IMG/VR virus record: IMGVR_UViG_3300038549_000020 | Location: 1-62,819 of that record | Strand: one strand, 5' to 3' | Source of the DNA: a virus | Taxonomy: Duplodnaviria > Caudoviricetes | DNA: 62,819 bases | Shown here: in pieces, positions 3,028-62,732 of the stretch | Layout of the letters: every line of letters starts with the position of its first letter | Numbering within the stretch: position 1 is the first letter of the stretch | Notes under the pieces: generated by a model | What the model was told of the DNA's origin: nothing | What the model saw: only the letters and a program-made list of their open reading frames with translations | Databases searched by the model: none | Position numbers and translations under genes: made by a program

Positions 3028-4377
3028 CTAGGCCCGCTCGTCCAGGACGACGTAGGCGGACAAGGTGCTGGCGGAGCCGTTCTTCGGCGTGATCGCACTC
3101 AGCAGCCACGGCCGACCGTCGACCCGCTCGGAGACCATGTAGCAGGTCTTGCCGTAGGCGAATTTGTAGTGAGTGCTGGAGTCCATGAACATCTGCTGGC
3201 GGTCGCCGAGCAAGTAGAACCGACGGTCGACAAAGGCGATGTCGCACTGGTCACCGAGGGGTGCGGTCTTCTCGGTGAAGTAGACGGGCCGTCCGTAGAT
3301 CGTAACCGGAGGTGCGCCGACGATCCCGTTGTTCAGCCACACCGGAGACCCGCCCGTACCGACGTTGATAGCCATCTCAGCCAGCTGCGGGAACGTGTCA
3401 ATCGCGGCGATCCACACCGCGTTCATCAGGGACGACGGCAGCATGCGGGAGAACATCTTGTCGATGTTCTTCTTGACGATCGTGTCGGCCAGTTGACCGG
3501 CCTCTTTCGCCACGCTGACACGGCCCTTGCCCTTGAGACAGCCGAGCGGTTCACCCGTCCCGTTGCCCATGAGCATCTTGTAGTCCTCCTCGAATTTGAT
3601 CGCGGAGGGCATGGCCATGCCCAAAAACGCGGACATCGCCGGGGCGTCCTGGAGCAAGTCGTTGGGGACTTCGGCGTACGCGCAGAGACTCTGCTCGCTG
3701 GTGTCCAGGGCGACGCGGGCGAACTTCGCCGAGGTTTCGGTGACCGCGGCGGCCTCGCTCGTCCAGTAGGCGACGACGCCACCGAAGACGCTGGATGCGT
3801 GGCTGGTGACATCCACCGCCGGAAGGCTCACCTTGGCCGTGGACATGGGAATGATCGTCGCCCCGGGGCGCATGATCGCCTCTTCGAGCGACAGCGACAG
3901 GATGTCCGAGCGCATGGTCTCGGGCATGAGGAATCCGCCATCCGCCGGAGCACCCTCGCTGTAGGCGTTGCGGAGCATGGCGAGCTTGTCGGTGTACTTA
4001 GGGTTGTCCCGGTTGCCGTGGTGCACGGTCCAGAGGAGATCGGCGAAGTCGGAGAACTTGCCGTCGAGCGGTGCGCCAGCGGCGGCCTTGTTGTACAGGC
4101 CGTCGCGGCGGGCGATGGTGCTGCCGCGCTCCTGGCCGGTCAGGTTGGGCCGCTTGATCGTCGTGGCGTTGGTCTCGCGGAGGAAGTCGGCCATGGTCTT
4201 CTGGACTTCGAGGCGAACCTGTTCGCCGATGCCCGGATCGGACTTCGCGTTGGCCGCGGCGTAAGCCTTGATCAGGTCGGGGAACTGTCCCTCCTTGAGT
4301 AGAGCGGCGACCTGCTTGCCGTCATTGAGCATTTCCTCCAGCTCAGCGGGAGCGGTAGGGATTACGATCTTGGTCAC
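3028..4377 (-). CDS. Major capsid protein (HK97 fold)
   Basis: DGGFLMPE, GNGTGEPLG, IYGRPVYFTE, ERVDGRP motifs; follows the protease gene. Confidence 0.95.
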   Translation of the reverse strand: MTKIVIPTAPAELEEMLNDGKQVAALLKEGQFPDLIKAYAAANAKSDPGIGEQVRLEVQKTMADFLRETNATTIKRPNLTGQERGSTIARRDGLYNKAAAGAPLDGKFSDFADLLWTVHHGNRDNPKYTDKLAMLRNAYSEGAPADGGFLMPETMRSDILSLSLEEAIMRPGATIIPMSTAKVSLPAVDVTSHASSVFGGVVAYWTSEAAAVTETSAKFARVALDTSEQSLCAYAEVPNDLLQDAPAMSAFLGMAMPSAIKFEEDYKMLMGNGTGEPLGCLKGKGRVSVAKEAGQLADTIVKKNIDKMFSRMLPSSLMNAVWIAAIDTFPQLAEMAINVGTGGSPVWLNNGIVGAPPVTIYGRPVYFTEKTAPLGDQCDIAFVDRRFYLLGDRQQMFMDSSTHYKFAYGKTCYMVSERVDGRPWLLSAITPKNGSASTLSAYVVLDERA

Positions 4378-5117
4378 GCGAATGCTCCCCTCAGAGCGTC
4401 AGTGATGGCGGCAAGGTCGATGTCGTCGTCGGTCGGGTCGTCGAGTTTCGGTGCCGGGGCGGCGGCCCGCCCCGAGTAGTTGAAGATCGACAGGTCCCAG
4501 CTGTTCTGTTTCGAGGAGGTGCCGGACACCTCGTCGACCAGGCCCGCCTCCAGAGCCTCGGCGGCGGTGAACCACGTCTCGGCGAGCATCAGCTCACGCC
4601 ACTCGCCGACCGTCCTCTTGCGACGTTTCCCGCCGCAGTTGGCGCAGCGCTCGGCGTAGATGTCGGCCAGGTTGTCGCTGGTGGCGTCCAGGCGGTCCGC
4701 CTGCTCGCGCAGTTCGGCGGCCGAGCCGATGCCCAGCGTCCGCGCCTCGTGGATCATCATCGTGGCGTTGCGGGCCATGATCCGGTGATCACCACCCTGG
4801 GCGATCACGCTCGCGATCGACGCGGCCAGGCTGTCGATATAGACGGTGACCTGGGCCTCGTGCTGGCGCAGGGCCTCGTAGATGGCGATCCCGTCATACA
4901 CTTCCCCACCAGGGGAGTTCAGATGTACGCTGATGCGATCACGGTCGATCTCTGCGAACTCGCGGACGAAATCGGCCGCAGTGATCCCGAAGTAGCCGAT
5001 CTCGTCGTAGATGTAGACCGCCGCTCCGTCGGCCTTGTTGGTCTGGATGCTGTACCAGTCGGCGCGACCCTCACGGAGTCGCGCTACCGGACGCGCGGTT
5101 TTGAGTCGGTCACGCAC
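4374..5117 (-). CDS. ClpP-family prohead maturation protease
   Basis: LNSPGGEVYDG, AASIASVI, MMIHEA, ETWFTAAEALEAGLVDEV; true start is GTG at 5117 with an AAGGAGG RBS, overlapping the portal stop. Confidence 0.92.
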   Translation of the reverse strand: MRDRLKTARPVARLREGRADWYSIQTNKADGAAVYIYDEIGYFGITAADFVREFAEIDRDRISVHLNSPGGEVYDGIAIYEALRQHEAQVTVYIDSLAASIASVIAQGGDHRIMARNATMMIHEARTLGIGSAAELREQADRLDATSDNLADIYAERCANCGGKRRKRTVGEWRELMLAETWFTAAEALEAGLVDEVSGTSSKQNSWDLSIFNYSGRAAAPAPKLDDPTDDDIDLAAITDALRGAFA

Positions 5118-7971
5118 CGGTGTCCTCCTTCTTCTCCCAGACGGGGATGATCTGACCCCGGCATCGCACCCCGCCTGAGCAGTGCAGATAGCCCTTGACC
5201 GGGTACATGGCGCGGGCGGCCGGAAGCGTGGCGAATTCAGTCCCGTCAATCTCCGCGCACGCGGGGCAGCGATTGGTGTCATTGACCTCGCACGCCACGT
5301 AGCGGGTCGGCTGCGGCGAAGCGGCGGCCATGGTCTCCACCCGCCCGGCATGCTGGGCCTGACTGAGCGCACCGCCCAGCTGGTCACGCGGATACCGGTC
5401 CGACAGCTCCTCCAGGTGCTGGCGCACCAGCTCGGCCACCTCAGCGCCCGTGGTCAGCTCACCCGCCACCCGCAGCGCCTCCTGGCCAGCGGTCACGGCC
5501 AGGCTGGAGGCCATCAGAGCGGCGACGGTGGCGGCGGCCGCCGTCATCTCGGCTTCTGGCGGGACCTGCTCGACGACCGTCACACCCTGGGCGGCGGCCT
5601 CCTGCCTCACACTGATCGCACCCAGCAGAGCCAGGGCGATCATCGCGGCGGCGAGGGCCGCGGTCGCGTCGTCGGTGTCGGCCTCCAACTCAGACAGGCC
5701 CTCGGTGTCGCCCTTGTCCACGGCGATACGGATCTGCTCCAGGATCTGCTCGCGCTGACGTGCGCCGAGGCGCTGCCACTGATCCAGCAGGTCCTCCACG
5801 GCGGATTCCCAGTCCCGCTGGAGGCGGCGCATGGACTCCTCGACCGCCTCATCGAGATCGGCCTGCGCGTGGAGGATCGGCCCGGGATGCGGAGGGTTGT
5901 GGTGGGCACACGTGTGTGCCGGTCCGCGCTCACCCTGCGGCCCACGGGGGCCAGCCGGTCCGAGGTCGCCCTGGGGTCCGACCGGTCCGGTCTGGCCGAC
6001 GGGTCCGATCTCGCCACGTTCGCCGCGCGGGCCCTCCGCCCCGATTGGACCGGGCAGCCCACGCTCGCCGCGTTCGCCGCGCGGGCCGCGCTCACCGCGG
6101 GGTCCGGCGGGGCCGAGGTCGCCCACGGGTCCGGTGGGGCCGATCTCGCCGCGTGGTCCGCGTTCGCCGCGTTCGCCCGTGGGTCCAGCTGGTCCTGTCT
6201 CGCCGATGGGGCCGATGGGTCCTGGTTCGCCCGGGGTTCCCGGGATGCCGTCTGTGCCGCGCTCGCCCTTCGGGCCGCGTTCGCCGCGTTCTCCCTGGGG
6301 GCCGAGGTCGCCCACTGGGCCAATGGGTCCGGTCTCGCCGCGCGGGCCGCGCTCTCCCCGAGGTCCAACTGGGCCGAGCAGGCCGGGATCGCCGCGCTCA
6401 CCTGGCTCGCCGCGCTCCCCGGCTGGGCCAATAGCGCCGACGGGACCGGTCTCTCCGCGTGGTCCGCGTTCGCCGCGTTCGCCCGGCTCGCCCCGTTCAC
6501 CCACGGGGCCGATGGGTCCAAGTTCGCCGCGCGGACCACGCTCGCCCCGCTCGCCCTGGGGACCGGTCTTGCCCTCTGGTCCTGGTGCTCCGGTGGCGCC
6601 AACGGGTCCGGTCTCGCCGCGTTCGCCCACCGGCCCAGGGATGCCCCGGTCGCCGCGTTCGCCGCGCGGGCCGCGTTCGCCTCGGGGACCGACAGGCCCG
6701 GTCTCTCCGCGCAGGAGGTTTCCGTACCGCTGGTACATGGCGGTGACCAGCTGCTCGGGGGCCTCGCCGTGGTGGGGCATGGGCGGGAGTCCCACCATGG
6801 CGAGGACACCGGCCGGCTCGAAGCCCGCGGCGATCAGGCTGGTGGCTGCGGCGACCTTCGAGGCGAGGTCGGCGCGCAGTGCCTCGGCGTCGGCGGGTAC
6901 CGGGGAGTCGTAGTCCAGTTCGTACAGTTCGGCGTCGCGCTGGCCGAAGAGCGGCAGGTAGCGGGCGTTGAGGACGCCTTTCCACCGCTCCAGGCGGGGC
7001 ACGGTGAGCTGTTCGGCGAACCAGGTCTTGGATGCCTCGGCGGTGGCGCGGTTGACGTCGTCGAGGATGCCGAGGGCGAATGCCGGGATGCGGAATGCCT
7101 CCCGGATGACCTCGCGGGAGACCTCGCGGAGCTCGACGAACTGCATGTCACGCTGGGAGAGCCTGTTCTCGACCCATTCGCCCATTTCGATGATGGCGAC
7201 GCGGTGAGCGTTGGCCACGCCCTGGTGCTGCTCGCGCCAGCGCAGGCACATCTCGTCGAATTCCTCATCGGACAGTCGACGATCGACCTTGATCATTCCG
7301 CCGGGGGCCGCGCTGTTGATGAAGAAGTTCCGGTTCCACTCAGCGCTGTATTTGGCCGAGTCGATGTCGGCGAGGATGGCCTGCACCGGCCCCATGCCCC
7401 GGTACGGATCCAGCGGATTGGGCATGCGCAACTGGAGGACGTCCTCCAGGGGCAGCGGCACCGTCTCCCCGGACGGACCGGTGTACTCCCAGCCGACCAG
7501 GTAGTCAGTGGCAGAGGCGACCGGGGTCATGCGGTCGGGGCGCACCGGCCACAGCTCCAGAGGGATCGACCGCATCCGCTCATCGCGGGCGACGACAAGG
7601 AACCCCTCGCCGACCAGGTCAAGATGCTGCTGACAGGTCTCGATCAACAGCTGGCGGTTGAAGAAGGAGTTGGGCTTGTTGAGGACGTCCAGCGCCAGAT
7701 GCCTAGTGACCTCGACGCGGTCTTCCTTGCGCCCGGATGCGGCCTTGCGCCACAGTCGCCAGTTGACGGCGGCGGTGGCGTTCGAGGTGCAGTTGACGAT
7801 CGCATAGACCGTCCCGTTCGCACCCATGGCCTCCATCTGGCCGACCGCACCGGTGCGGACAAGGGAGCCGAACAGTCCGCCACGGCCGGCGTAGCGCGGC
7901 ACGTAGGGCACGGGAGCGCGGTTGACGACACGCTGAGTGAGTGCTCCGAGGGCACCCACCAGTGATCGCAT
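5110..7971 (-). CDS. HK97-type portal protein fused to a collagen-like region and a C-terminal MuF-like domain
   Basis: Portal motifs (LWPVRPDRM, PYRGMGPV, FFINSAAPGG, DMQFVELR, IREAFRIP); 88 Gly-X-Y triplets; C-terminal DTNRCPAC..IDG...HC.GGVRCRG. Confidence 0.9.
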   Translation of the reverse strand: MRSLVGALGALTQRVVNRAPVPYVPRYAGRGGLFGSLVRTGAVGQMEAMGANGTVYAIVNCTSNATAAVNWRLWRKAASGRKEDRVEVTRHLALDVLNKPNSFFNRQLLIETCQQHLDLVGEGFLVVARDERMRSIPLELWPVRPDRMTPVASATDYLVGWEYTGPSGETVPLPLEDVLQLRMPNPLDPYRGMGPVQAILADIDSAKYSAEWNRNFFINSAAPGGMIKVDRRLSDEEFDEMCLRWREQHQGVANAHRVAIIEMGEWVENRLSQRDMQFVELREVSREVIREAFRIPAFALGILDDVNRATAEASKTWFAEQLTVPRLERWKGVLNARYLPLFGQRDAELYELDYDSPVPADAEALRADLASKVAAATSLIAAGFEPAGVLAMVGLPPMPHHGEAPEQLVTAMYQRYGNLLRGETGPVGPRGERGPRGERGDRGIPGPVGERGETGPVGATGAPGPEGKTGPQGERGERGPRGELGPIGPVGERGEPGERGERGPRGETGPVGAIGPAGERGEPGERGDPGLLGPVGPRGERGPRGETGPIGPVGDLGPQGERGERGPKGERGTDGIPGTPGEPGPIGPIGETGPAGPTGERGERGPRGEIGPTGPVGDLGPAGPRGERGPRGERGERGLPGPIGAEGPRGERGEIGPVGQTGPVGPQGDLGPAGPRGPQGERGPAHTCAHHNPPHPGPILHAQADLDEAVEESMRRLQRDWESAVEDLLDQWQRLGARQREQILEQIRIAVDKGDTEGLSELEADTDDATAALAAAMIALALLGAISVRQEAAAQGVTVVEQVPPEAEMTAAAATVAALMASSLAVTAGQEALRVAGELTTGAEVAELVRQHLEELSDRYPRDQLGGALSQAQHAGRVETMAAASPQPTRYVACEVNDTNRCPACAEIDGTEFATLPAARAMYPVKGYLHCSGGVRCRGQIIPVWEKKEDTGA
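5917..6708 (-). repeat. Collagen Gly-X-Y repeat, 88 uninterrupted triplets
   Basis: 792 nt = 88 x 9 nt of GER/GPR/GPV/GET-type triplets, in frame within the portal ORF. Confidence 0.95.
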
Positions 7972-8978: not shown

Positions 8979-9328
8979 CAGCTCCGCCAGATCGAGTTGT
9001 CCGCATCATGTCCGTTACGGATCGCGGCACAGATGTCCCGATGCTCCTTCAGGGCTTCTGCGCGGGTGATGTTGCGCCACTGCCGTTCATGCCATGGATG
9101 ACCAGGCCGGGAGAAAGTCATCGTCTCGAACATTCCCCAGCTCGGGGAGTCGACGCCGCGAAACACGGTGGATACCTCGACGTCTCCGACCTGGTCAAGG
9201 AGGATACGGCTACGCTCCGGGTCGCTGTGCCACTGGGCCCATGCCATGATGTCCGGCTCTGGTGCTGGGTTGCCGTCGGCGTCCAGGATGTATGTGTACG
9301 CATGGTGCTTGCGATGCTGGTCGATCAT
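8975..9328 (-). CDS. Hypothetical phage protein
   Basis: EVSTVFRG...FETMTF motif seen in actinophage proteins; coupled to terL. Confidence 0.6.
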   Translation of the reverse strand: MIDQHRKHHAYTYILDADGNPAPEPDIMAWAQWHSDPERSRILLDQVGDVEVSTVFRGVDSPSWGMFETMTFSRPGHPWHERQWRNITRAEALKEHRDICAAIRNGHDADNSIWRSW

Positions 9329-10656
9329 CTAATGATCCTTATCCGTGGGCGTGGCTGGAGATCCAGCTCGGCGCAGATGTACCGGGCGGCGTCACAGCCA
9401 TGGTCGTCAATCTTGAGTGGCTGTTCCTTGATCGCCTTGCCTGCGCCAGTGTCCCAGACGTATCCGGGGATCTCCTCGGCCGTGCAGGTGGGTTTCTTCG
9501 CGTCGATCAGCTCGGGGTCCCGCTCGACCAGGGAGTCTCGCAGGATGTACAGCCGGGGTCTGCCGTCGCCAGCGGGGGCGAGGCGTCCCTGCATGACCTG
9601 GATGCCGTCGGTGACGGTCTTCTTCGCCGGTGTGGTGCCCAGGCCCAGCTCACGTTCGAGGACGGCGCGGCCCTCCGCGTCGTGGTCGCAGATGATGGCG
9701 CGCGGTCGCGGTTCGGTCCACCGACCATCCTGGTCTCTGACCTGGGTGAGGGCATGTCTGGCGTGGACGTCGACGGTCCGGCGGGTGTGGTAGATCTCGC
9801 GGTACAGGTAGAGCCTGCCGTCGGGGTCGACGGCCCACCACTGGATGACCATCGGATTGGTGTAGCCGAAGTCGACCGACCAGTACCGGGTCCAGGTCGC
9901 GGGGATGTCGAAGCGGTCGATGAGGTGGGTGGCGGGGTCGTAGGTGTCGAAGATCTGCCCTTCGGCGGAGACCCAGAGGCCGCGCCGCAACCGCTGGTAG
10001 CGGGGGCCGGTGAGGTTGTCGAGTTTGGCGATGTACGCCTGCCCGGCTTCGGTGAGCTTGCCGTCGTCGTCGTACAGAACGGGATTGTCCTCGTGGCGGC
10101 TGTCGAGGATGCGGCACACCCCCCGATCACACCGGGCTTTGAGCCAGTGGGTAGGGGTGTCGGGGTTGGTGTCGGCCATGATCTGCTGAAAGCTGATCTT
10201 GCCATTGCGTAGGCGGGTCGTGATCGCGTCCCAGTCGCCCTCGGTGAGCTCGATCGCCTCCTGCACGTAGGCGATATCGAATTCTGACGACATGATCTTT
10301 GTCGGCTTGTCCATCCCACCGACGTTGATCACACTGCCGTTGCGGTACCGGTAGCCGGGGGATTCCTGGGTCGACCCCCCGTACCATTCCACCTCACCCA
10401 CCAGCTTCGCTTCCGGGATCACGAAGCGGTTCCATGTCACGAGGGCCGTGTTGCCCAGGCTCGCGAGGGTCTTGCGGATGACGATTCCCCGCATGCCCGG
10501 ATTCAGCAGGGCGAGCAGGTGCAGGCGCTCCAGCAGCGCGCGACTCTTGCCGGTGCCGGCCGGGCCGGACAGCAGCATCTCTGGATCACGGCACTCGAAC
10601 GCCTGCCGGCAGGCACCACGGGGAATGAACTGGTGACGGAGGACGGTAGTGGTCAT
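9325..10656 (-). CDS. terL: Terminase large subunit
   Basis: Walker A SGPAGTGKS, YVQEA, DTNP, nuclease SVDFGYTNP, DDHGCDAARY. Confidence 0.95.
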   Translation of the reverse strand: MTTTVLRHQFIPRGACRQAFECRDPEMLLSGPAGTGKSRALLERLHLLALLNPGMRGIVIRKTLASLGNTALVTWNRFVIPEAKLVGEVEWYGGSTQESPGYRYRNGSVINVGGMDKPTKIMSSEFDIAYVQEAIELTEGDWDAITTRLRNGKISFQQIMADTNPDTPTHWLKARCDRGVCRILDSRHEDNPVLYDDDGKLTEAGQAYIAKLDNLTGPRYQRLRRGLWVSAEGQIFDTYDPATHLIDRFDIPATWTRYWSVDFGYTNPMVIQWWAVDPDGRLYLYREIYHTRRTVDVHARHALTQVRDQDGRWTEPRPRAIICDHDAEGRAVLERELGLGTTPAKKTVTDGIQVMQGRLAPAGDGRPRLYILRDSLVERDPELIDAKKPTCTAEEIPGYVWDTGAGKAIKEQPLKIDDHGCDAARYICAELDLQPRPRIRIIR

Positions 10657-12074
10657 CAGGCGGTGAAGTCGTGTGGTTCCATGGTGCCGTCGTCAAGCAT
10701 CCTGTCCGGAATGACGCCAATGGCCTCCTGGAGGCGACGACAGATTAGGTCACAGTATGCGGGGCTGATCTCGCATCCGTAGCCGATGCGCTGCTCTTGG
10801 TGTGCCGCTAGGAGGGTTGTTCCTGAGCCTGCGAAGGGGTCGAGTACTGCATCGGTGGGGTCGGTGTACGCACGGATGAACCAGGCCGGCAGTGCGACGG
10901 GGAAGGCCGCTGAGTGTGTTCCGTCGCCCCCGGCCGGGATCTTGATCACATTGCTTGGCCTTGCCAGCCCAGCTCCGTAATTCCTGGCTCCTGCCGGTGC
11001 GTAGCCACCTTCGCGCATGTCCATGTGTGCGTCTGGGCTGTAGCGGAGCACGTCTTCGCTCACGTGCCCGTTGGCGAGCGGGTTGAACCTGATCGGCGCC
11101 GACGCGGCGAAGTGGAAAACGGGCTCCCACGCGTCCTTGAACCGGTTCGGAAAGGAGCCGGGGAACCCGTTGGAGGCGTCAACCCAGCAAAGCTCATCGA
11201 CGAACCGCCATCCCCACCTGCGTACGTGGGCGATCGTCAGGTCTTTGACGTACAGGTGCCGCTGACCGTCCTCGCAATGCTCCTTGATGTTGACGAACCA
11301 TGATCCATCGCTGGCCAGGACTGCTCTGACGTTGGCCTGAATCTCCTCGAACCAGTCGACATAGCCATCCGGCGGTATCGGAGTGAAGCCGCTCGACTCA
11401 TCGTATGTGCGCTGCGACGCGTACGGCGGGCTTGTGAAGGCGAGGTTGACCCTGACCCCATCCATCAGGCGCTCGATCACGTCGAAGTCGCGACAGTCCC
11501 CACAGATGAGCCTGTGGCGTCCGATCCTCCACAAGTCGCCCCGCTTGCTGACTGGATCCGCTGGCGGAGACGGTGGCGCCGCCGGTCCGTCGTCGAGTGC
11601 GGGCGGGAGTTCGGTCACCTCGCCTTCGCCGAGGAGTTCGGCCAGATCGTCATCGCTGAATCCGGTCAGGTGCGCCAGTTCGGCGTCAACCTCGGCGATG
11701 GAACCCACCAGGGCGGCCAGCTCCCCGGCGTCCCATCCGCCGAGTTCGGTGTATCGGTTGTCAGCGACCAGGTATGCGTCCGCCTCGGCGTCCGACCGTG
11801 ACGCCCAGCCGCAGACGACCGGGACCATCCACTCGTCGCCCTGGACCTGGATGCCGGCGGGCGGAGACTGTCCGGACTCCCGTAGCGCCGTGAGCGCCTC
11901 GAGGCGGCCATGCCCGGCGACCAGTCGTCCGGTGCGCTCGTCGAGCAGGGCTGGCTGCGTGAAGCCGAATCGGCCGATGGATCGGCGTACGCCGTCGATG
12001 TCGTGGCGCTTGGGGTTGCTGGTGGCCGAGAGGATGGCCGACAGTGGGCGGTATTCGATGCGTCGGTCGCTCAT
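10656..12074 (-). CDS. ParB-N domain plus beta-class DNA N4-C/N6-A methyltransferase
   Basis: NPKRHD...LVAGHGRL (ParB); FTSPPY; LDPFAGSGTT; start MSDRRIEY overlaps the terS stop. Confidence 0.9.
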   Translation of the reverse strand: MSDRRIEYRPLSAILSATSNPKRHDIDGVRRSIGRFGFTQPALLDERTGRLVAGHGRLEALTALRESGQSPPAGIQVQGDEWMVPVVCGWASRSDAEADAYLVADNRYTELGGWDAGELAALVGSIAEVDAELAHLTGFSDDDLAELLGEGEVTELPPALDDGPAAPPSPPADPVSKRGDLWRIGRHRLICGDCRDFDVIERLMDGVRVNLAFTSPPYASQRTYDESSGFTPIPPDGYVDWFEEIQANVRAVLASDGSWFVNIKEHCEDGQRHLYVKDLTIAHVRRWGWRFVDELCWVDASNGFPGSFPNRFKDAWEPVFHFAASAPIRFNPLANGHVSEDVLRYSPDAHMDMREGGYAPAGARNYGAGLARPSNVIKIPAGGDGTHSAAFPVALPAWFIRAYTDPTDAVLDPFAGSGTTLLAAHQEQRIGYGCEISPAYCDLICRRLQEAIGVIPDRMLDDGTMEPHDFTA

Positions 12075-12565
12075 CGCAGTTTCTCCATGTCGACGCCGTC
12101 GACGGTGTAGCGGACGGTAACGCCACCACTGATGTCGGTCTTGACGGGTTCGTTGAGGCCGAACAGGAGTGCCCGTTGCCGGCTGATGGCGGTCAGGACC
12201 TTGATGGCCGAGAGGATGGGGCCGTCGTCGACGAGTGGGACGTCTCTTCCTGCGTCGGGATCTGGGATGGTGACGATTTCTCCACTGGAGACGACGTAAT
12301 GACGGCGGGCCATGACGGCGAGGGCGACGCGTTCGAGTCGATCGAGCTTGTCTGACTCGATCATGCGTCGGAGGTCGACGGCTACGGCTGGCCGCTCCGC
12401 GTTGGCCTTCTTGAGCTGCTGGCTGACGGCGGCTTGCGTTATGCCGTAGTGCTCGGCGATCTGTTGCTGTGAGTGACCGTTGACGATCATGCGCATCATT
12501 TCGGCGCGTCGTTCGGCCATAAGCGCACGCTGCCGTGATCTTGACGTTTTGTCCTGATCTGTCAC
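12071..12565 (-). CDS. Putative terminase small subunit (N-terminal HTH)
   Basis: GHSQQQIAEHYGITQAAVSQ HTH, RALLFGLNEP; upstream of the MTase and terL. Confidence 0.7.
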   Translation of the reverse strand: MTDQDKTSRSRQRALMAERRAEMMRMIVNGHSQQQIAEHYGITQAAVSQQLKKANAERPAVAVDLRRMIESDKLDRLERVALAVMARRHYVVSSGEIVTIPDPDAGRDVPLVDDGPILSAIKVLTAISRQRALLFGLNEPVKTDISGGVTVRYTVDGVDMEKLR

Positions 12566-12758
12566 GGCACCCCGCCTTATATAAGCGCCCTGTATAAGGC
12601 TGCGTATAAGGTGGATCATAGGCCGTCATGATCGCCAGACGCCACGCCGCGCGTAAGATAATGACGGTTATCCAACGCGATCGGTTACGCTCCGAAACGC
12701 CGGCGGCTACTGTCCGACGACGTGAGCAGGGCCGATCCGGGGCCGTTATGGTGACGGG

Positions 12759-53827: not shown

Positions 53828-56038
53828 CTATCTCGCGTATCTGGCCTGGTGGAACAGTTGGATGGGTGCGCCTGCCGCATGCGCCTTGACCACGCCGTTG
53901 ACCGAACGGGTCACCGTGAACGTCTGTGGCGAGGTCGTGTCGGCGACGTCCGTCACGGTCATGCGCTCCCCGCCGATGATGATGTCGAAGGGCAGGCTCG
54001 CGGCGTCGTCGGTCGCCAGAACCCACCTCGGCCCGGTGAACGTCACGGACAATGACACATCCGCTGAGGTGATCGCGGTGGTCAGAGTCGACCCGTCGGA
54101 CTCATAGCGACCCAACGCCGACGAGTCGTACACCCCGACGTGCGTCCACGCCCCGGCCGGCGTCGCGTTATACGAGATCGTCCAGGTGTACGCGCCGATC
54201 CGCTCCGTATACCCCTGGATCATGAGGCCGGTGTCGTCGGGTGGCATCCACGACGGCGGATTGGTGAGGGTGACCACCGAGCCAATGTCCAGGGCGATCG
54301 CGGCGGCGGTGGCGACCGGATCGGCGCGCCACACCGATCGGTGCAGGCCGATCTCCGCGCGGGGGTAGCGCGTGGCGTCCCAGGTGCCCAGATGTCGCAG
54401 CCACCCGGTGACGTCGGGCAGCTGGCTGTCGTCGTCCAGGTACAGCCTCGGGGTGCTGTCGTACACCCCGACCCCGTCCGGATCGGTACGGGGATCGTTG
54501 ATGTTGAGTGGCCCCGATGTCTGGGTGGACCGCCACGATCCGCCGTCGATGCGGGTGACCGTGATGTCGTTGGCGATCGCGTCGTCGTCGTCCTCGGGCT
54601 CCAGCCGGCCGGAGAGCGCGTTGGCTGAATAGTCCCAGGTCGGACCTGTCGTGTTGTACATGCTGTCTCGGGTGCGGTAGGCCAGGCCCAGGCCTAGGCG
54701 CGGCTCGTAGAGGATCCCGCCGTCGGTGTCGGCGCAGTCGTCCATCAGGTCGATGAGGGTGCTCTCCTCCTGGCGACCCATGGCGGCGGTCGCGCTGGCC
54801 GCACCGTCGAGCTGGAGATGCACCCCATCCTCGGCACACAGTCGGATCATCCGGGCGGCGGCCAGCTCGCCCCAGTAACCCCCCATGGCCTCGTAGGTGC
54901 TGGTGGCGACCGTGTCGGCATAGACGGCGATGTGTCCACACGAGGCGGATTTCATCGACGTGTCGGGCACGTTCTGGACGGAGATCTGGACGACCGAGCC
55001 GGGCACGAAGGCATCGGTGTCGGTTCCTCCGGAAACGTCGTCCAGGAGCACCTCCATGGTCGCGTTCGCCCCGACTTGGTCCAGGGTGACGCGCAGGTGG
55101 TGCCACTCGCCGTCCAGGGGCTCCTCGCCGGAGATCACCACGGATACCGAGCCTCCGCCCGAGTCGGCCTCGGTACCGGTCACGGTGATCGTGTCGGTGA
55201 CCCCGTCCTCGAAGTCGATGACGAGCGTCCAGGTCGCCCATTCCGTCGTCCACTTGATGGGTGCGTACTGGGCGACGGCGATGTCGGTGGTGTCGCCCAG
55301 GAAGATCAAATCCAGGGTCCAGCTATCTCCTGTGGACCCCGACAGGAAAGCTGTCATGACAGGCTCGATCGCCGTGACGGCGTACACAAACTCCGGCAGG
55401 GTCGACCGCGCGCCATCCGGACCGGTGATCTTCGAGAATGCGAAGCTCCCGTACGCGGTCACCCCAGGCTGCCCGGACACCACCGATCCACCGACGCTGG
55501 TGGATGTCCCATCATCCAGCGGCCAGTAGGCCACCGGACTACGGGCGACGATGGAGCGCTCCAGGGCCGAGCGCTTGCCCCGCTGACCCTGGCCGAGACG
55601 GCGCTTGATCCCTGCGGCCTCCAGGGGCACGTAGACATCACTGCCACTGGTGTCCCAACGCTGCGGCCAGCTGGACACCTCCCCCTCGAATCGCTGGTCA
55701 GACCCGATGGTCACCCTGATCGGGGTGTTGCGGCCAATCAGCCCGTAGTAGGGGCTCGACGGGTTGCGCGGCGACATGTAGCCGTCGCGGTTGTCGAGGG
55801 TGAGCGCGAGGGTGCTCGGGCCGAGAGTGGACTGCCCATTGCTGCGTCCCCGGGTGATGGTGATCCCGTCGGACTCCCGAACCCTGCTGGTGACGTCCAC
55901 CCACCCACCGTCGACGAAGATCTCGACCCTGTGGTTGATGTGGCCGTCCGCATCGAAGGCGGACACGCCGGATCCGCCGAGGAGGGTTGGCCTGCCAGCC
56001 AGCTCCCACCCGGCCCACAGGGGGGCGAGTGACCTCAT
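53828..56038 (-). CDS. Minor tail hub protein with LamG-like insertion
   Basis: ITRGR...LTLDNRDG.MSP.NP.SPYYG, PVAYWPLDDG. Confidence 0.75.
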   Translation of the reverse strand: MRSLAPLWAGWELAGRPTLLGGSGVSAFDADGHINHRVEIFVDGGWVDVTSRVRESDGITITRGRSNGQSTLGPSTLALTLDNRDGYMSPRNPSSPYYGLIGRNTPIRVTIGSDQRFEGEVSSWPQRWDTSGSDVYVPLEAAGIKRRLGQGQRGKRSALERSIVARSPVAYWPLDDGTSTSVGGSVVSGQPGVTAYGSFAFSKITGPDGARSTLPEFVYAVTAIEPVMTAFLSGSTGDSWTLDLIFLGDTTDIAVAQYAPIKWTTEWATWTLVIDFEDGVTDTITVTGTEADSGGGSVSVVISGEEPLDGEWHHLRVTLDQVGANATMEVLLDDVSGGTDTDAFVPGSVVQISVQNVPDTSMKSASCGHIAVYADTVATSTYEAMGGYWGELAAARMIRLCAEDGVHLQLDGAASATAAMGRQEESTLIDLMDDCADTDGGILYEPRLGLGLAYRTRDSMYNTTGPTWDYSANALSGRLEPEDDDDAIANDITVTRIDGGSWRSTQTSGPLNINDPRTDPDGVGVYDSTPRLYLDDDSQLPDVTGWLRHLGTWDATRYPRAEIGLHRSVWRADPVATAAAIALDIGSVVTLTNPPSWMPPDDTGLMIQGYTERIGAYTWTISYNATPAGAWTHVGVYDSSALGRYESDGSTLTTAITSADVSLSVTFTGPRWVLATDDAASLPFDIIIGGERMTVTDVADTTSPQTFTVTRSVNGVVKAHAAGAPIQLFHQARYAR

Positions 56039-56547
56039 CACTCAGCCCAGCGGATCCAACACCGCATGTCCACCCCGGACGTCGGAGTGGTCGCCCGGAC
56101 GCGGACGAACTTGCTAACCGGAATGATCGGCCGCGAGTCGGGCATCCACTGATAGGAGTAGTGCGAGGGTGATTCGCTGGTGGTCATCGACAGCGCCACC
56201 ACATCGAAGACCCGTGTCGCCGTGGTGTTGTCCTCGGCGGAGGAGGTGTAGCCGGTGGCCTCCGTGCCCAGGGTGAGCAGAGACGCGGGTGCGCCAGGGT
56301 CGGTGGGCTGCACCCCTGCGGCCACATGCGCGGTGACGGTGGCGGCCACATCGGTTTGCAGCAGCTCCACCACACCATCGGCACCTGGGATGTCGTCGAC
56401 GGTGAATCCCCATGCGATCAGGGTGATCTGCCTGGTCGACGGGGTCGCCAGCTGCAACATGGTCTTGATCGATGTCCCGGTGGTGACGGCGGCCTGGGCT
56501 GCCGTGGTCGGCATCGGTCCGTTCCAGGCCGTATAGATGTGCGGCAC
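56038..56547 (-). CDS. Minor virion protein
   Basis: Beta-rich; in the tail operon. Confidence 0.6.
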   Translation of the reverse strand: MPHIYTAWNGPMPTTAAQAAVTTGTSIKTMLQLATPSTRQITLIAWGFTVDDIPGADGVVELLQTDVAATVTAHVAAGVQPTDPGAPASLLTLGTEATGYTSSAEDNTTATRVFDVVALSMTTSESPSHYSYQWMPDSRPIIPVSKFVRVRATTPTSGVDMRCWIRWAE

Positions 56548-59656: not shown

Positions 59657-60103
59657 TCACCCTCTCTGAAATCTCGTGGCCAGGCTGTCCTGGTGGAGAG
59701 CGAAGTCCTCCACCCAGTGCTCCGGCCGTTGATGCACCCGCCGCTGTCCGATCAGGCCGCGCCAGTCCCCACCCCGCACCACACACAGCGGATCCCTCTC
59801 CAGGGGTGTGAAGTGCGGCTTGAAGCAGCGCTGACCAGGGGAAAAGGTGAACACGGTCAGCCCGGAGGGGTCCGGGCGCTCCCTGAACGCCCGGCCGGCG
59901 CGGGTACGGATGTAGCCGGCCCTCCTGGCGCCGTCCTCGGTGCGCTCATCCAGGGCGGTAACCCATCCGTTGCGCCAGCGTTCGCACTCCACCTCAGCGC
60001 AGCTCGCGCGACGGTGATGCGTGGAGATAGGTGCGCTGAGCTGGTACGTCTTGTACGCCTGCACCGGCATGACGGGTGTGAGGCGGTTGACCGGGCGCGC
60101 CAT
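59657..60103 (-). CDS. Hypothetical tail-operon protein
   Basis: Coupled ORF; CAEVEC...GW. Confidence 0.55.
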   Translation of the reverse strand: MARPVNRLTPVMPVQAYKTYQLSAPISTHHRRASCAEVECERWRNGWVTALDERTEDGARRAGYIRTRAGRAFRERPDPSGLTVFTFSPGQRCFKPHFTPLERDPLCVVRGGDWRGLIGQRRVHQRPEHWVEDFALHQDSLATRFQRG

Positions 60104-60855
60104 CAGAACACCGTCGCCGTCAAGTTGCGGCAGATCGCGACCGCGAACGTCATCGATGTGAATCCGGCGGCGGTGGTCGTCACGACCCGTAGGTACTGCT
60201 CGACGGCCAGGGTCGCGGAGGTGGCGATCCGCTGCACGGTCGGCGCGGCCGTGACCGCTGTGAATGATCCACCGGTCACGTTAGCCCAGGCGTCAGCTCC
60301 CCCGTTGTCGCTGGACTCCTGGATCGTGATCGTCGCATCCGTACCGACGAACGTGAATACCTGGAGGTAGGCCTGTAGTCCGAACGCCGAGGGAGCACTG
60401 TCGTTGATGGATGATCCGTTGGTGGCGCCCGTGTCGGTACGGATCCCTGCCGTGCCGAGCCTGCCCCACTCCAGGCCGTAGTCATTGGAGAGGGCCTGAA
60501 CCGAGAAGCTGAACGATCCGTCAGCACCCCGGCTGCCGTCATAGTTGGGCTGCTTGGCGATCATGCAAGCCGCCGCGTTGCCCAGTGTCGTCCCTCGGCA
60601 GTACATGAGGTGCACATCGGTACGCGGCAGGGTCTTGAGCACCGGATGGGCCTGACCGGCGGCGTCGTTGAACCAGGACGACCACTCGACCGTGCCGTTA
60701 CGCCCCCCGCCTATCCGCTCGGGTGCGTACTTGTCGATGCCGGTGACCTCCAGGGCGGCAGGCCCACCGGAGATGCCGCCCAGGGAGCCGACGTCGCCAC
60801 TGAGGTTGTACCCACCACAGTAGAAGTTGTCCCCGAGGCCGCTCTGCTTGGTCAT
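60103..60855 (-). CDS. Tail-tube-like protein with an extra C-terminal beta domain
   Basis: N-terminus resembles 59225-59650 (KQSGLG, EVTGID...ERI, FNDAA..H.V.KT). Confidence 0.6.
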   Translation of the reverse strand: MTKQSGLGDNFYCGGYNLSGDVGSLGGISGGPAALEVTGIDKYAPERIGGGRNGTVEWSSWFNDAAGQAHPVLKTLPRTDVHLMYCRGTTLGNAAACMIAKQPNYDGSRGADGSFSFSVQALSNDYGLEWGRLGTAGIRTDTGATNGSSINDSAPSAFGLQAYLQVFTFVGTDATITIQESSDNGGADAWANVTGGSFTAVTAAPTVQRIATSATLAVEQYLRVVTTTAAGFTSMTFAVAICRNLTATVF

Positions 60856-61301
60856 GGCGCCTCCGTCCACGCATCGTTGATCAACAGGGGGAGGGTGATC
60901 GTGTACACCCTGTACAGCCGGTTGTCCTGGGACAGGTAGCCATCGACGGCCTCCATCGGCACCCCGTGGATGCCGCGCACATCCACCGTGCGCACCTGGG
61001 CGCCGAGGGTCAGATCACCGGCATAGGCGGCCATGAGCGTGTCGCAGGCCGCCGTCAGGTTTGGATCGATCATGTCCGCTGGCTCTTGCAGCATCGACGA
61101 GTACAGGCGCACGTTCAGCAGGAGTCGCACGCTCGTGGAAGCCAGGCCAGACGAATTGATCGGGGTGATTCGTCCACCCCAGATCGCGCAGGTCAGACCG
61201 TTGCCGGGGGCATTTTTCGGCTCGTGCTTGTTGACCCTTTCGAACAGGCCGAGGGTCATGGCGTGGCTGGCAGCCGCATCGATGATCGCGTTGGTGTCCA
61301 C
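60852..61301 (-). CDS. Tail terminator-like protein
   Basis: Position; DLTLG..V..VD. Confidence 0.6.
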   Translation of the reverse strand: MDTNAIIDAAASHAMTLGLFERVNKHEPKNAPGNGLTCAIWGGRITPINSSGLASTSVRLLLNVRLYSSMLQEPADMIDPNLTAACDTLMAAYAGDLTLGAQVRTVDVRGIHGVPMEAVDGYLSQDNRLYRVYTITLPLLINDAWTEAP

Positions 61302-61302
61302 G

Positions 61303-61689
61303 TCAGCCCTCCAGCCTAAGGAGGTGGTGCGACACAACCGGTTCGACGATCGTCGGCACCATTCCGTCAATCGCCTGTCGGGTCTGTCTCCAGTGCCGGT
61401 AGCCCTTGAATCTGCTGGTGGCGTTGCGGGAGCCGACCCCCTCCAGCCACGGCCCGTAGACGATGCCCGTGTCGTGGACGATGGCGGTCAGGTAGGCGGG
61501 GTGCGCGGTGGTGACCCGCGTCCAGTAGTAGGGCGTCGGGTCGCGGAAATAGATGTGCATGAGGTGCACGGCGTGCTCCTCGGCGACGTCGGCGACCGTG
61601 TCGACCACATCGGCCGCGAGGTCTTCGACGATGCCCTCGGCGCGGCCGTCCAACAGGGGACCGTGGGCGTCCACCGTGATCCGGATCAT
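61303..61689 (-). CDS. HK97 gp10-like neck protein
   Basis: VYGPWLEG.G...FKGY. Confidence 0.6.
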   Translation of the reverse strand: MIRITVDAHGPLLDGRAEGIVEDLAADVVDTVADVAEEHAVHLMHIYFRDPTPYYWTRVTTAHPAYLTAIVHDTGIVYGPWLEGVGSRNATSRFKGYRHWRQTRQAIDGMVPTIVEPVVSHHLLRLEG

Positions 61690-62732
61690 CAGACGGCCCT
61701 CGATCTGGCCTTGCGGCCGTAGGTCGCATACACCTGGTCGCGTTTCTCGCCCAGCTGCCGGCCCCAGTACTCGCGGGCGTTCTCGCCGCTGCCGGCAACC
61801 CGGGCGTAGCCGCTCCCCTCGTTGAGCAGCTGATTCATTGCCGACGCCACCGCGTACCCCTCCACCAGGGGCGGCACGACGTGCCGGGTGATCGCCGCGT
61901 TGATCAGATGGGTCGCGGCGGTGGTCCCCAGGGCTCCCCGCTCCACGGTGAGGGTGCGGGGGGCGTAGATGTCGGCCAGGGCGGCATGGGTGGCCAACAC
62001 GGAGCCGTCCCAGGCCCTCTTGACCGTGAGCACGCTGCCCGCGACGTCGACGACCAGCATCCGCTCGCTGTCGATGAGGATGATCTCGTCTGCGACCGGG
62101 GCCGCCGTGGTGGTCGACATGGTGATGCCGACGTCGGCGTTGGACGCGGTCAGGGAGTCAGCGGCGTGGATATTGACCCCGGTGTCGGCCATCGTCTTGC
62201 CGGTGACGATCATCCGCTCGCTGTCGACCTTGATGATGTCCCCGACTCCGATTGCTGCCGAGTCCGAGCAGCTGACGCTCGTGCCGGTGGTGTCGGCCAG
62301 GGCGGCGGTGATCGTGCCGGCCGCTGAGGTGTTCGCCGAGTGCCCCCAGATGCCGACCAGGACATTGCCACGCTGCGAGGACGACCAGGAAGCCGAGGCG
62401 TCATCGTCGAGATCGATCCACCGATACGGCGGCCCATCCTGCGGATACAGATGGTAGTCGGACGCGCTCAGCGCCGTACCGTCCACAGTGATGCTGGTGG
62501 CACTGATCAGGTCGTGTTTGTCCAGGTAGAGACGGGTACCGCACACGGGGCCGATCTTGTCGTCGAAGTATCTCGTCGCGGTCAACGGGTAGAAGAACCG
62601 GTGACACAGACCCTCGATCTCAGGCGACGCGGAGGCGATCGCCGCGTCGACCTGGGCATTGTTACGCGCGGTCTCAGCCGCATCCAGGGCGCGCTTGACC
62701 CGTTCGCGCGTGGTGTACCAGATCGTGCTCAC
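61689..62732 (-). CDS. Head-tail adaptor with inserted beta modules
   Basis: YTTRERVK...AS.EIE..C.R.FYP..ATRYF. Confidence 0.7.
   Translation of the reverse strand: MSTIWYTTRERVKRALDAAETARNNAQVDAAIASASPEIEGLCHRFFYPLTATRYFDDKIGPVCGTRLYLDKHDLISATSITVDGTALSASDYHLYPQDGPPYRWIDLDDDASASWSSSQRGNVLVGIWGHSANTSAAGTITAALADTTGTSVSCSDSAAIGVGDIIKVDSERMIVTGKTMADTGVNIHAADSLTASNADVGITMSTTTAAPVADEIILIDSERMLVVDVAGSVLTVKRAWDGSVLATHAALADIYAPRTLTVERGALGTTAATHLINAAITRHVVPPLVEGYAVASAMNQLLNEGSGYARVAGSGENAREYWGRQLGEKRDQVYATYGRKARSRAV

Follow-up and report, generated by a model that had tools for sequence, protein, structure and literature searches.

Background

Fusions of a phage portal protein to a MuF-type protein have been described in Microbacterium phages, namely in subclusters EA3, EA5 and EA8 and in cluster EB, and a MuF-protease fusion has been described in cluster EG (PMC7302621). 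In phage SPP1 few copies of the MuF-type protein gp7 are brought inside the procapsid, through their binding to the portal protein gp6, and gp7 aids the onset of infection; a collagen-like trimer, gp12, is found on the capsid surface (PMC6316719). Fusion of MuF and portal domains to cargo enzymes is a recognised theme (PMC5512222). Here we analyse a 62,819-bp IMG/VR virus record (IMGVR_UViG_3300038549_000020; 'the window' hereafter denotes this whole stretch of DNA), in which a single open reading frame (ORF) of 953 amino acids (aa), at 5110..7971 on the minus strand, joins a portal domain to a MuF-like domain through a collagen-like segment of 88 unbroken Gly-X-Y triplets.

The window protein resembles the portal-MuF proteins of actinobacteriophages and prophages in having its portal domain N-terminal and its MuF-like domain C-terminal, and in lying between the terminase gene and the protease and capsid genes; it differs from the 65 relatives that we measured, which have low-complexity joints of 32-121 aa, in a joint of 315 aa that contains the 88 triplets. 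With SPP1 it shares the gene order portal then MuF and, probably, delivery of the MuF protein to the inside through the portal, but gp6 and gp7 are separate proteins that associate non-covalently and in few copies of gp7, whereas the window's two domains are covalently linked and presumably present in 12 copies. As in the 'polyvalent' and polymorphic-toxin MuF or portal fusions, an extra module is attached for travel in the virion; cargo-like additions also occur among the window's relatives (ClpP in 21 of the 120 listed, a domain of ~270 aa in P0013 and P0123, and two HEFGH modules at locus L106), but the module inserted in the window is a structural collagen repeat and not an enzyme or a toxin. 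The repeat is similar in length and in its charged, Pro-rich composition to tail-fibre shafts and SPP1 gp12 (collagen ORFs of IMG/VR phages have runs of 14-135 triplets). Those collagens, however, stand on the virion exterior and have end domains of their own, whereas the window repeat is embedded between two modules expected inside the head.

One reading frame with three parts

The ORF begins with ATG, has no internal stop and encodes 953 aa plus a stop codon; its N-terminus (MRSL...) aligns with the starts of its relatives, and codon-position GC backs this frame in the two flanks of the repeat (GC at third codon positions [GC3] of 0.87 and 0.86). The portal domain lies at 6820..7812 (minus strand; aa 54-384 by Pfam PF04860 [Phage_portal], E 4.6e-57, 194.1 bits against a cut-off of 39.1), and its fold extends to about aa 400. 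The portal part also matches phrog_2662 and phrog_12, both named 'portal protein', is 57-65% identical to portals of actinomycete prophages, and scores 92.4 bits, under the cut-off of 112, with the narrower NCBIfam model TIGR01537 (portal_HK97). The position of the gene is that of a portal gene, between the large terminase (TerL) gene and the genes for a ClpP-type protease and the major capsid protein (MCP), all on the minus strand.

A junction at 6709..6771 (minus strand; aa 401-421, ...GLPPMPHHGEAPEQLVTAMYQRYGNLLR) leads from the portal end to the first triplet. It contains the motif GLPPM, which is common to the window protein and its relatives, and its lead-in (...YQRYGNLLRG-ETG...) resembles the ...HYAEQLRG-PAG... 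that stands ahead of a short Gly-X-Y run in the relative P0013. The triplets follow at 5917..6708 (minus strand; aa 422-685), 88 of 88 intact, and are matched by Pfam Collagen (PF01391) with E 1.4e-42 and 143.7 bits against a cut-off of 27.2. Among them are 21 copies of GER, 11 of GPR and 10 of GPV; 75 of the 264 residues are charged and 48 are Pro, and the best PHROG matches of the segment are tail-fibre collagen families (E 1e-47 to 1e-55). The six frames of the window contain one other Gly-X-Y run of at least 6 triplets, with 6 triplets at 2443-2496. Directly after the last triplet comes a His/Pro stretch (AHTCAHHNPPHPGP; aa 686-705, AHTCAHHNPPHPGPILHAQA, at 5857..5916 on the minus strand), and the remainder is the MuF-like domain (5113..5856, minus strand; aa 706-953), a helical bundle with a small Cys unit. 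Four cysteines of this unit, C902, C905, C931 and C937 (5161..5268, minus strand; CxxC ... C.....C, then RCRG), are invariant columns in our alignments A1 and A2. The initial annotation, made from the letters alone, had proposed all of these parts: the 953-aa ORF is real and lies on the minus strand, the portal domain is well above the family cut-off, the script returns the same 88 triplets at the same coordinates, the His/Pro linker is present, and the helical region with a Cys-rich end appears in the AlphaFold2 model as long helices followed by a small strand/Cys unit.

The DNA copies of the repeat are only 60-74% alike, and no exact repeat exceeds 31 nt (the pair at 6149 and 6455). Because all 88 glycines are intact despite this divergence, the segment looks functional and not like a fresh product of slippage; read from the sequence, the intact glycines argue for a helix that was maintained at some point in the past of the segment. 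In the collagen part GC3 falls to 0.70, versus ~0.86 in the flanks. We considered a foreign origin of this part on that ground and rejected the difference as evidence for one, since 84 other phage collagen ORFs shift the same way (a mean GC3 drop of 0.08 in the collagen part relative to the rest of the same ORF). As a triple helix the segment would measure 75.5 nm (264 residues at 0.286 nm each), which reproduces the ~75 nm proposed earlier, and 12 chains could give the four trimers supposed there.

The portal-MuF family and its linkers

Of 8000 candidates scored in a search with the whole protein, 5578 matched at E <= 0.001. The top 120 range in length from 636 to 1299 aa, and those with names are portal proteins of Micromonospora, Streptomyces, Nonomuraea and Streptosporangium. 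In alignment A1 (eight sequences) homology covers the portal and the last ~250 residues, with invariant columns in both, and the collagen run coincides exactly with the unalignable stretch between the two homologous parts; outside this insert the window protein is 51-57% identical to members from Micromonospora, Streptomyces and Nonomuraea. Both end domains are homologous, within one ORF, to the actinomycete portal-MuF family. The C-terminal 268 aa, searched against 1.84 billion cluster representatives, matched 1066 proteins at E <= 0.001; the best 150 of these are mostly proteins of 650-750 aa matched at their C-terminal end, together with some stand-alone proteins of 230-290 aa and some that carry further domains.

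We measured the joint between two landmarks in the alignments, the residue opposite query position 400 and the one opposite position 30 of the C-terminal domain. Among IMG/VR loci, 45 of 80 are fused and have joints of 33-118 aa; six others encode the C-terminal domain in a downstream ORF of its own, and in 29 it was not found in the available DNA. Among loci from GTDB species genomes, 20 of 65 are fused (joints of 32-121 aa) and four are split. By the same measure the window joint, 264 of its 315 residues being collagen-like, falls outside the short low-complexity range of the family. A comparison with the linkers of related portals, which the initial annotation had named as a check, thus places the window linker far beyond those of its relatives in length, and none of the relatives examined shares its collagen.

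The relatives' linkers are hypervariable in length and composition, with Pro/Ala runs, acidic runs and tandem units. Within many of these otherwise variable linkers a His-rich motif, LD(L/I)HHH(V)P(F/Y)TP, is conserved, and the window has AHHNPPHP in its place (within 5857-5916); the motif might bind metal or serve as a protease site. We also considered, and dropped, a programmed -1 frameshift where portal and MuF meet: there is no in-frame heptamer of the form X_XXY_YYZ near the junction (the ORF has only three, all within the collagen part), and none is conserved among the 80 IMG/VR relatives, most of which have none at all. The portal-MuF family therefore appears to make the fused form only.

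The fusion of portal and MuF is itself known and common; as far as our searches reach, the collagen joint is unique to the window protein among the relatives examined. These searches took in only the top-ranked candidates or those sharing most words with the query, so that absence is not proven. Within that scope, no second portal-collagen-MuF protein was found among the best 120 whole-protein matches (longest run 5 triplets, in P0013), the best 150 representatives matched by the C-terminal domain (P0123 alone has runs, of 7 and 10 triplets), the 80 IMG/VR loci, the 65 GTDB genome loci or 65 loci from JGI metagenomes, among which the C-terminal domain occurs in none; none of the 268 pooled relatives has a run longer than 10 triplets. 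When candidates were scored on aa 400-953, 118 of the best 120 matches were generic collagens and a portal domain was present in two, P0013 and P0123; a Pfam portal match and a Pfam collagen match occurred together in none of these 120. The exact fusion protein is absent from a collection of 15 billion proteins, and a collagen repeat within a portal or MuF protein is not described in the titles and abstracts surveyed.

In P0013 (1062 aa) and P0123 (1149 aa) the linkers are made of tandem His-rich helix units (…HLLAHHRDELRG…) and then short GEPG…GERGERG runs, amounting to Gly-X-Y runs of 5-10 triplets. Short collagen-like seeds therefore exist at this position among family members, and the repeat of the window may be an extreme case of expansion from such a seed. 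After the MuF-like domain both proteins carry a further domain of ~270 aa with a DRN.GN...IDHG motif; to judge by its residues this motif looks kinase-like, but Pfam assigns it no family at E <= 0.001.

Because collagen is absent from every other relative examined, the family does not need a collagen linker. An already common fusion with a dispensable linker had been named in advance as grounds for setting the proposal aside, and of these the first part holds: the fusion is common (the 5578 of 8000 candidates above) and published, with the collagen confined to the window among the relatives examined.

Some members of the family depart from the usual arrangement. The portal ORFs of ~590 aa in Streptomyces aculeolatus and S. 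phytophilus (L235 and L246) keep the four-Cys end without the helical bundle. At L106 the MuF-like domain ends a separate 777-aa ORF (4298-6628) in which Pfam matched nothing and the first 530 residues of which contain two copies of a module with a HEFGHV zincin-like motif. A Micromonosporaceae metagenome-assembled genome (L259) has NHPGH(G)DQKSHGRK near the start of three different ORFs around the portal (3-1034, 1306-2301 and 3750-4436), one of them inserted between the portal gene and a split MuF-like gene; cargo packaged into the head may share this element as a tag for targeting or cleavage.

The MuF-like end domain

The only stretch of the window that resembles PF04233 (Phage_Mu_F) is the C-terminal domain of the fusion, with E 0.05 when the whole protein is searched and 0.0064 (17.6 bits) for the C-terminal 268 aa; NCBIfam TIGR01641 does not match it, and the relative P0126 reaches 14.8 bits against that model's cut-off of 39.65. 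Fold, sequence similarity and gene context do point to MuF. An AlphaFold2 model of the last 268 aa, made with a 24-sequence alignment, has a mean confidence (predicted local distance difference test, pLDDT) of 92 and a predicted template-modelling score (pTM) of 0.87. A fold search of BFVD with this model gave 70 matches at E <= 0.001, the best to a protein of Arthrobacter phage Vibaki (E 2.5e-11, TM 0.66). Among the best 50 of these 70, 28 have names of head proteins (16 minor capsid, six head morphogenesis, two capsid maturation protease, two portal and two toxin fusions) and 22 are uninformative (19 nameless, two 'uncharacterized protein' and one 'Gp15'), so that the domain shares its predicted fold with MuF, minor capsid and head morphogenesis proteins.

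Translated searches (tblastn) matched 66 Arthrobacter phage records, the best with E 3e-11 and 36% identity over aa 149-262 of the domain; GenBank labels the matched genes 'MuF-like minor capsid protein'. The PHROG family phrog_595 is matched by 20 of 24 family members, and the domain has the position of a MuF protein, directly after the portal or, as here, fused to it. In profile-profile comparison (hhalign) the stretches aligned to SPP1 gp7 and Mu gp30 fall in the expected motif regions, with residues 165-279 of gp7 aligned weakly to positions 151-258 of the family profile; the four-Cys motif of the window stands where gp7 has other residues. Since fold, position and similarity fit but the curated cut-offs are missed, we call the domain MuF-like and not a member of PF04233. 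It is a remote, four-cysteine MuF-like variant, and the initial annotation's choice of 'MuF-like' was apt by fold, position and tblastn, with neither the Pfam nor the NCBIfam cut-off reached.

Proposed role of the collagen tether

We propose that the fusion delivers its MuF-like domain in cis on a long tether, which probably trimerises and may be cut by ClpP, a reading to which we give a probability of roughly 60%. The N-terminal ~400 residues would form the portal ring. Solved portals have their C-terminal end (the crown) turned towards the capsid interior, and proteins of the MuF type belong to the inside of the head, where they are recruited via the portal; since the portal C-terminus faces inward, the MuF-like domain would be carried into the procapsid in cis. 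Each portal subunit would bring one such domain, in place of the non-covalent recruitment of SPP1 gp7 by gp6. The low-complexity tether of the family would here be replaced or expanded by the 264-residue collagen-like segment, and 12 closely spaced chains leaving the portal could zip into up to four triple helices. Rods of ~75 nm would have to bend or be cut, because they are longer than the inner diameter of capsids for genomes of this size; the cut that detaches them from the portal may be made by the ClpP-type prohead protease, the product of the adjoining gene. In both cases, the rods would hold the MuF-like domains deep in the DNA-filled lumen or release them there.

Cleavage by the ClpP protease, which had been suggested from the outset, is plausible because the protease gene adjoins the fusion with an overlapping start and because 21 of the 120 best-listed relatives carry the protease within the fusion polypeptide itself. 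Its place within one polyprotein in those relatives implies, at the level of sequence, probable self-processing in the family.

Several observations weigh against this proposal. A 75-nm rod exceeds the inner diameter of capsids for genomes of about 60-80 kb. No relative shares the insertion, and the family as a whole does without collagen; in a linker this tolerant the segment could have been elaborated neutrally. Pfam scans of the whole protein and of the C-terminal 268 aa recognised no trimerisation domain beside the repeat. The sequence comes from one contig only, and the only public run found to contain it is a possible source of the record, not an independent sample. The MuF assignment is remote: PF04233 gives 17.6-18.9 bits against a curated cut-off of 29.6 and reaches E <= 0.01 in only two of 24 family members, and hhalign of the family profile returns E 0.0031 with 10% probability for SPP1 gp7 and E 0.025 for Mu gp30. 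Foldseek found zero matches to the model among solved structures in the PDB at E <= 0.001; a profile search of PDB sequences returned chance-level rows (best E 0.33), and a wide structure search with VIA-align returned generic helical bundles only (best Z 8.1). These searches of solved structures found no MuF-like counterpart, which does not show that the fold is new.

The main rival to delivery in cis on a trimerising tether is a purely flexible and neutral one: the Gly-X-Y segment would never form a triple helix and would act as a long, Pro- and charge-rich tether that provides spacing only, having arisen by repeat expansion or capture. The hypervariable linkers of the 65 fused relatives (32-121 aa, with their Pro/Ala runs, acidic runs and tandem units) are what such a history would leave, the 5-10-triplet runs of P0013 and P0123 make Gly-X-Y one of several low-complexity themes at this site, and no adjacent trimerisation domain was recognised by the Pfam scans. 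Set against this are the 88 triplets, unbroken even though their DNA copies have diverged to 60-74% identity, and the GER/GPR/GPV make-up, which is that of phage and bacterial collagen and gives matches to tail-fibre collagen PHROGs at E 1e-47 to 1e-55; a portal ring that holds 12 chains side by side would also favour their association. A predicted complex of three copies of aa 405-720, with a score of 0.05 against a mark of 0.32 and a partner whose own fold is uncertain, bears on trimerisation in neither direction. On balance we consider a tether that never folds unlikely, if still a serious competitor.

Portal-MuF fusions are by now routine annotation, and an 88-triplet tether within one of them is a natural experiment on what the tether does. 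If the collagen segment folds, it would be the first collagen helix inside a capsid and would indicate that a dodecameric ring can seed trimers; tether length, stiffness and cleavage would then offer a handle on the placement of MuF and its release during infection. A segment that does not fold would instead show how much the joint tolerates, which would be useful for loading cargo into phage heads via the portal.

Support for the assembly

A misassembly was the first difficulty foreseen for this ORF: the collagen part, or its length, could be a wrong path through the repeat, and the true gene could have an ordinary short linker. The single contig and single run noted above leave room for this, and the exact 31-nt pair at 6149 and 6455 makes a branch at k = 31. 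In the Logan assembly of the same run, a 10,207-nt contig covers 6456-8800 and runs across the portal-to-collagen junction by 252 nt; the stretch 6150-6484, between the 31-mers, is represented by a 335-nt contig of similar depth (13 vs 9.8). The Logan contigs end exactly at the repeat pair, and because they break there, a form shorter by 34 triplets is compatible with the contigs alone. No listed Logan contig covers 4753-5507, and 5508-6111 has short scraps only (from the filtered records of the 69% of the run that was read); the collagen-to-MuF junction is neither confirmed nor contradicted by these contigs, and the gap proves nothing. The second assembly thus bears out one of the two junctions and is silent on the other.

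Other features of the region speak against an artefact. The frame is kept across both junctions, and the flanks carry family motifs (GLPPM upstream and the His-rich motif downstream). No second collagen gene exists in the window that might have been the donor of a splice, and long exact repeats are absent from the region except for the one 31-mer. We regard a wrong assembly path as improbable and take the fusion ORF to be a genuine single gene of the phage.

A second lineage that couples portal and collagen

An IMG/VR scan, seeded partly by a collagen word, drew in a further set of loci (L004-L083) from an unrelated group of phages, 79 of which have a run of at least 20 triplets. In 57 of the 79 the collagen run starts no more than 1.2 kb from where the portal match ends, that is, in a collagen gene directly after the portal gene (in L036, for example, portal at 3857-5305 and collagen gene at 5190-6623); of the rest, 20 have no portal in the available DNA, one has its run 2 kb away and one (L065) is a single ORF. 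Where the collagen gene is separate, it starts at a conserved ATG (M..SNGKSE...) that lies in the +1 frame, some 71-86 nt ahead of the portal stop codon. We considered that a frameshift might join the portal to the overlapping collagen ORF and set this aside, as these collagen ORFs have their own conserved ATG and are therefore most simply separate genes.

The 864-aa ORF of L065 (3857-6451) comprises a portal (Pfam E 2.5e-76), a coiled coil, 56 collagen triplets (Pfam E 3e-28) and a globular end. Enterobacteria phage 2851 (NC_049943.1; L167, 2890-5469) has an annotated 859-aa portal protein with a portal domain, a coiled coil, four tandem repeats of ~55 aa and, last, a globular domain that is a homologue of the one at the end of L065. 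Matches to L065 in phage 2851 and in many related E. coli phage records extend over both its portal and its terminal globular domain, and in the phage 2851 type the coiled coil and the four repeats occupy the place of the L065 collagen. We know of no discussion of this ~450-residue portal extension.

Because it occurs in L065, in the 57 of 79 loci and in the phage 2851 type, a fibrous extension on or beside the portal appears to be recurrent. The window protein resembles the portals of phage 2851 and L065, as well as those of phi24B and P22 type, in carrying a long fibrous or helical extension behind the portal fold. It differs in belonging to another portal lineage (24% identical to L065) and in its MuF-like end, the end domain of the phage 2851 and L065 portals not being MuF. 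The second lineage, which includes relatives of E. coli prophages, suggests that the theme of portal plus fibre or collagen is broader than one contig.

The second lineage also supplies the case for a collagen-MuF part with a role external to the capsid lumen, such as that of a fibre set free by cleavage or translated from a start within the ORF, in that its collagen genes mostly have a start of their own after the portal (fused once, in L065) and that their end domains look, on our reading of the sequences, like fibre tips. This we consider highly improbable for the window, where the terminal domain is MuF-like, the portal C-terminus would lie inside as in known structures, and no internal start with a ribosome-binding site was seen, although no search aimed at one was made. 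SPP1 gp7 is an internal head component (PMC6316719, PMC5512222), and the portal barrel of phi24B extends into the capsid interior according to its preprint.

Delivery of MuF in cis on a collagen tether admits a bolder form, which we offer tentatively. Collagen would lie inside the virus head as four triple helices nucleated by the portal (a 12-to-3 symmetry match), forming an axial bundle or spring that positions MuF or, after cleavage by ClpP, releases it; together with the second lineage, portal-anchored collagen would then be a recurrent and so far undescribed element of phage heads.

Gene neighbourhood and further observations

The window derives from an uncultured actinomycete-type (soil-type) phage; the record is classed as linear, is estimated to be 79% complete and has ~67% G+C. 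Its head module lies on the minus strand in standard order: a ParB-methyltransferase fusion, the large terminase, the fusion ORF, the ClpP-type protease and the major capsid protein. The TerL gene (9325..10656, minus strand; phrog_2, E 3.4e-36) lies upstream of the portal in the same direction. The ClpP-type prohead protease gene (4374..5117, minus strand; PF00574, E 1.3e-26) adjoins the fusion downstream and is followed by the MCP gene (3028..4377, minus strand; phrog_10, E 2.3e-28). The most likely protease start is a GTG at 5117, which overlaps the fusion stop by 8 nt, with AAGGAGG at 5124-5130, six bases ahead of it; this arrangement indicates that the protease gene is translationally coupled to the fusion gene, as predicted from the DNA.

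An exact terminal overlap of at least 12 nt was not found between the ends of the window. The head-to-tail gene series leaves the left end of the contig (1-917) and resumes at the right end (59657-62732), where a major tail protein is encoded at 60103-60870; because the series continues across the contig ends, the record looks like a permuted and nearly whole genome, although it is still classed as linear. Directly upstream of the terminase, the ParB-like/DNA methyltransferase fusion is 657 aa long (10656-12629, minus strand). Among apparent tail genes, a 737-aa protein (53828-56041, minus strand) matches phrog_5313, a family of unknown function, with E 7.6e-188 and has a weaker match to a phosphodiesterase family.

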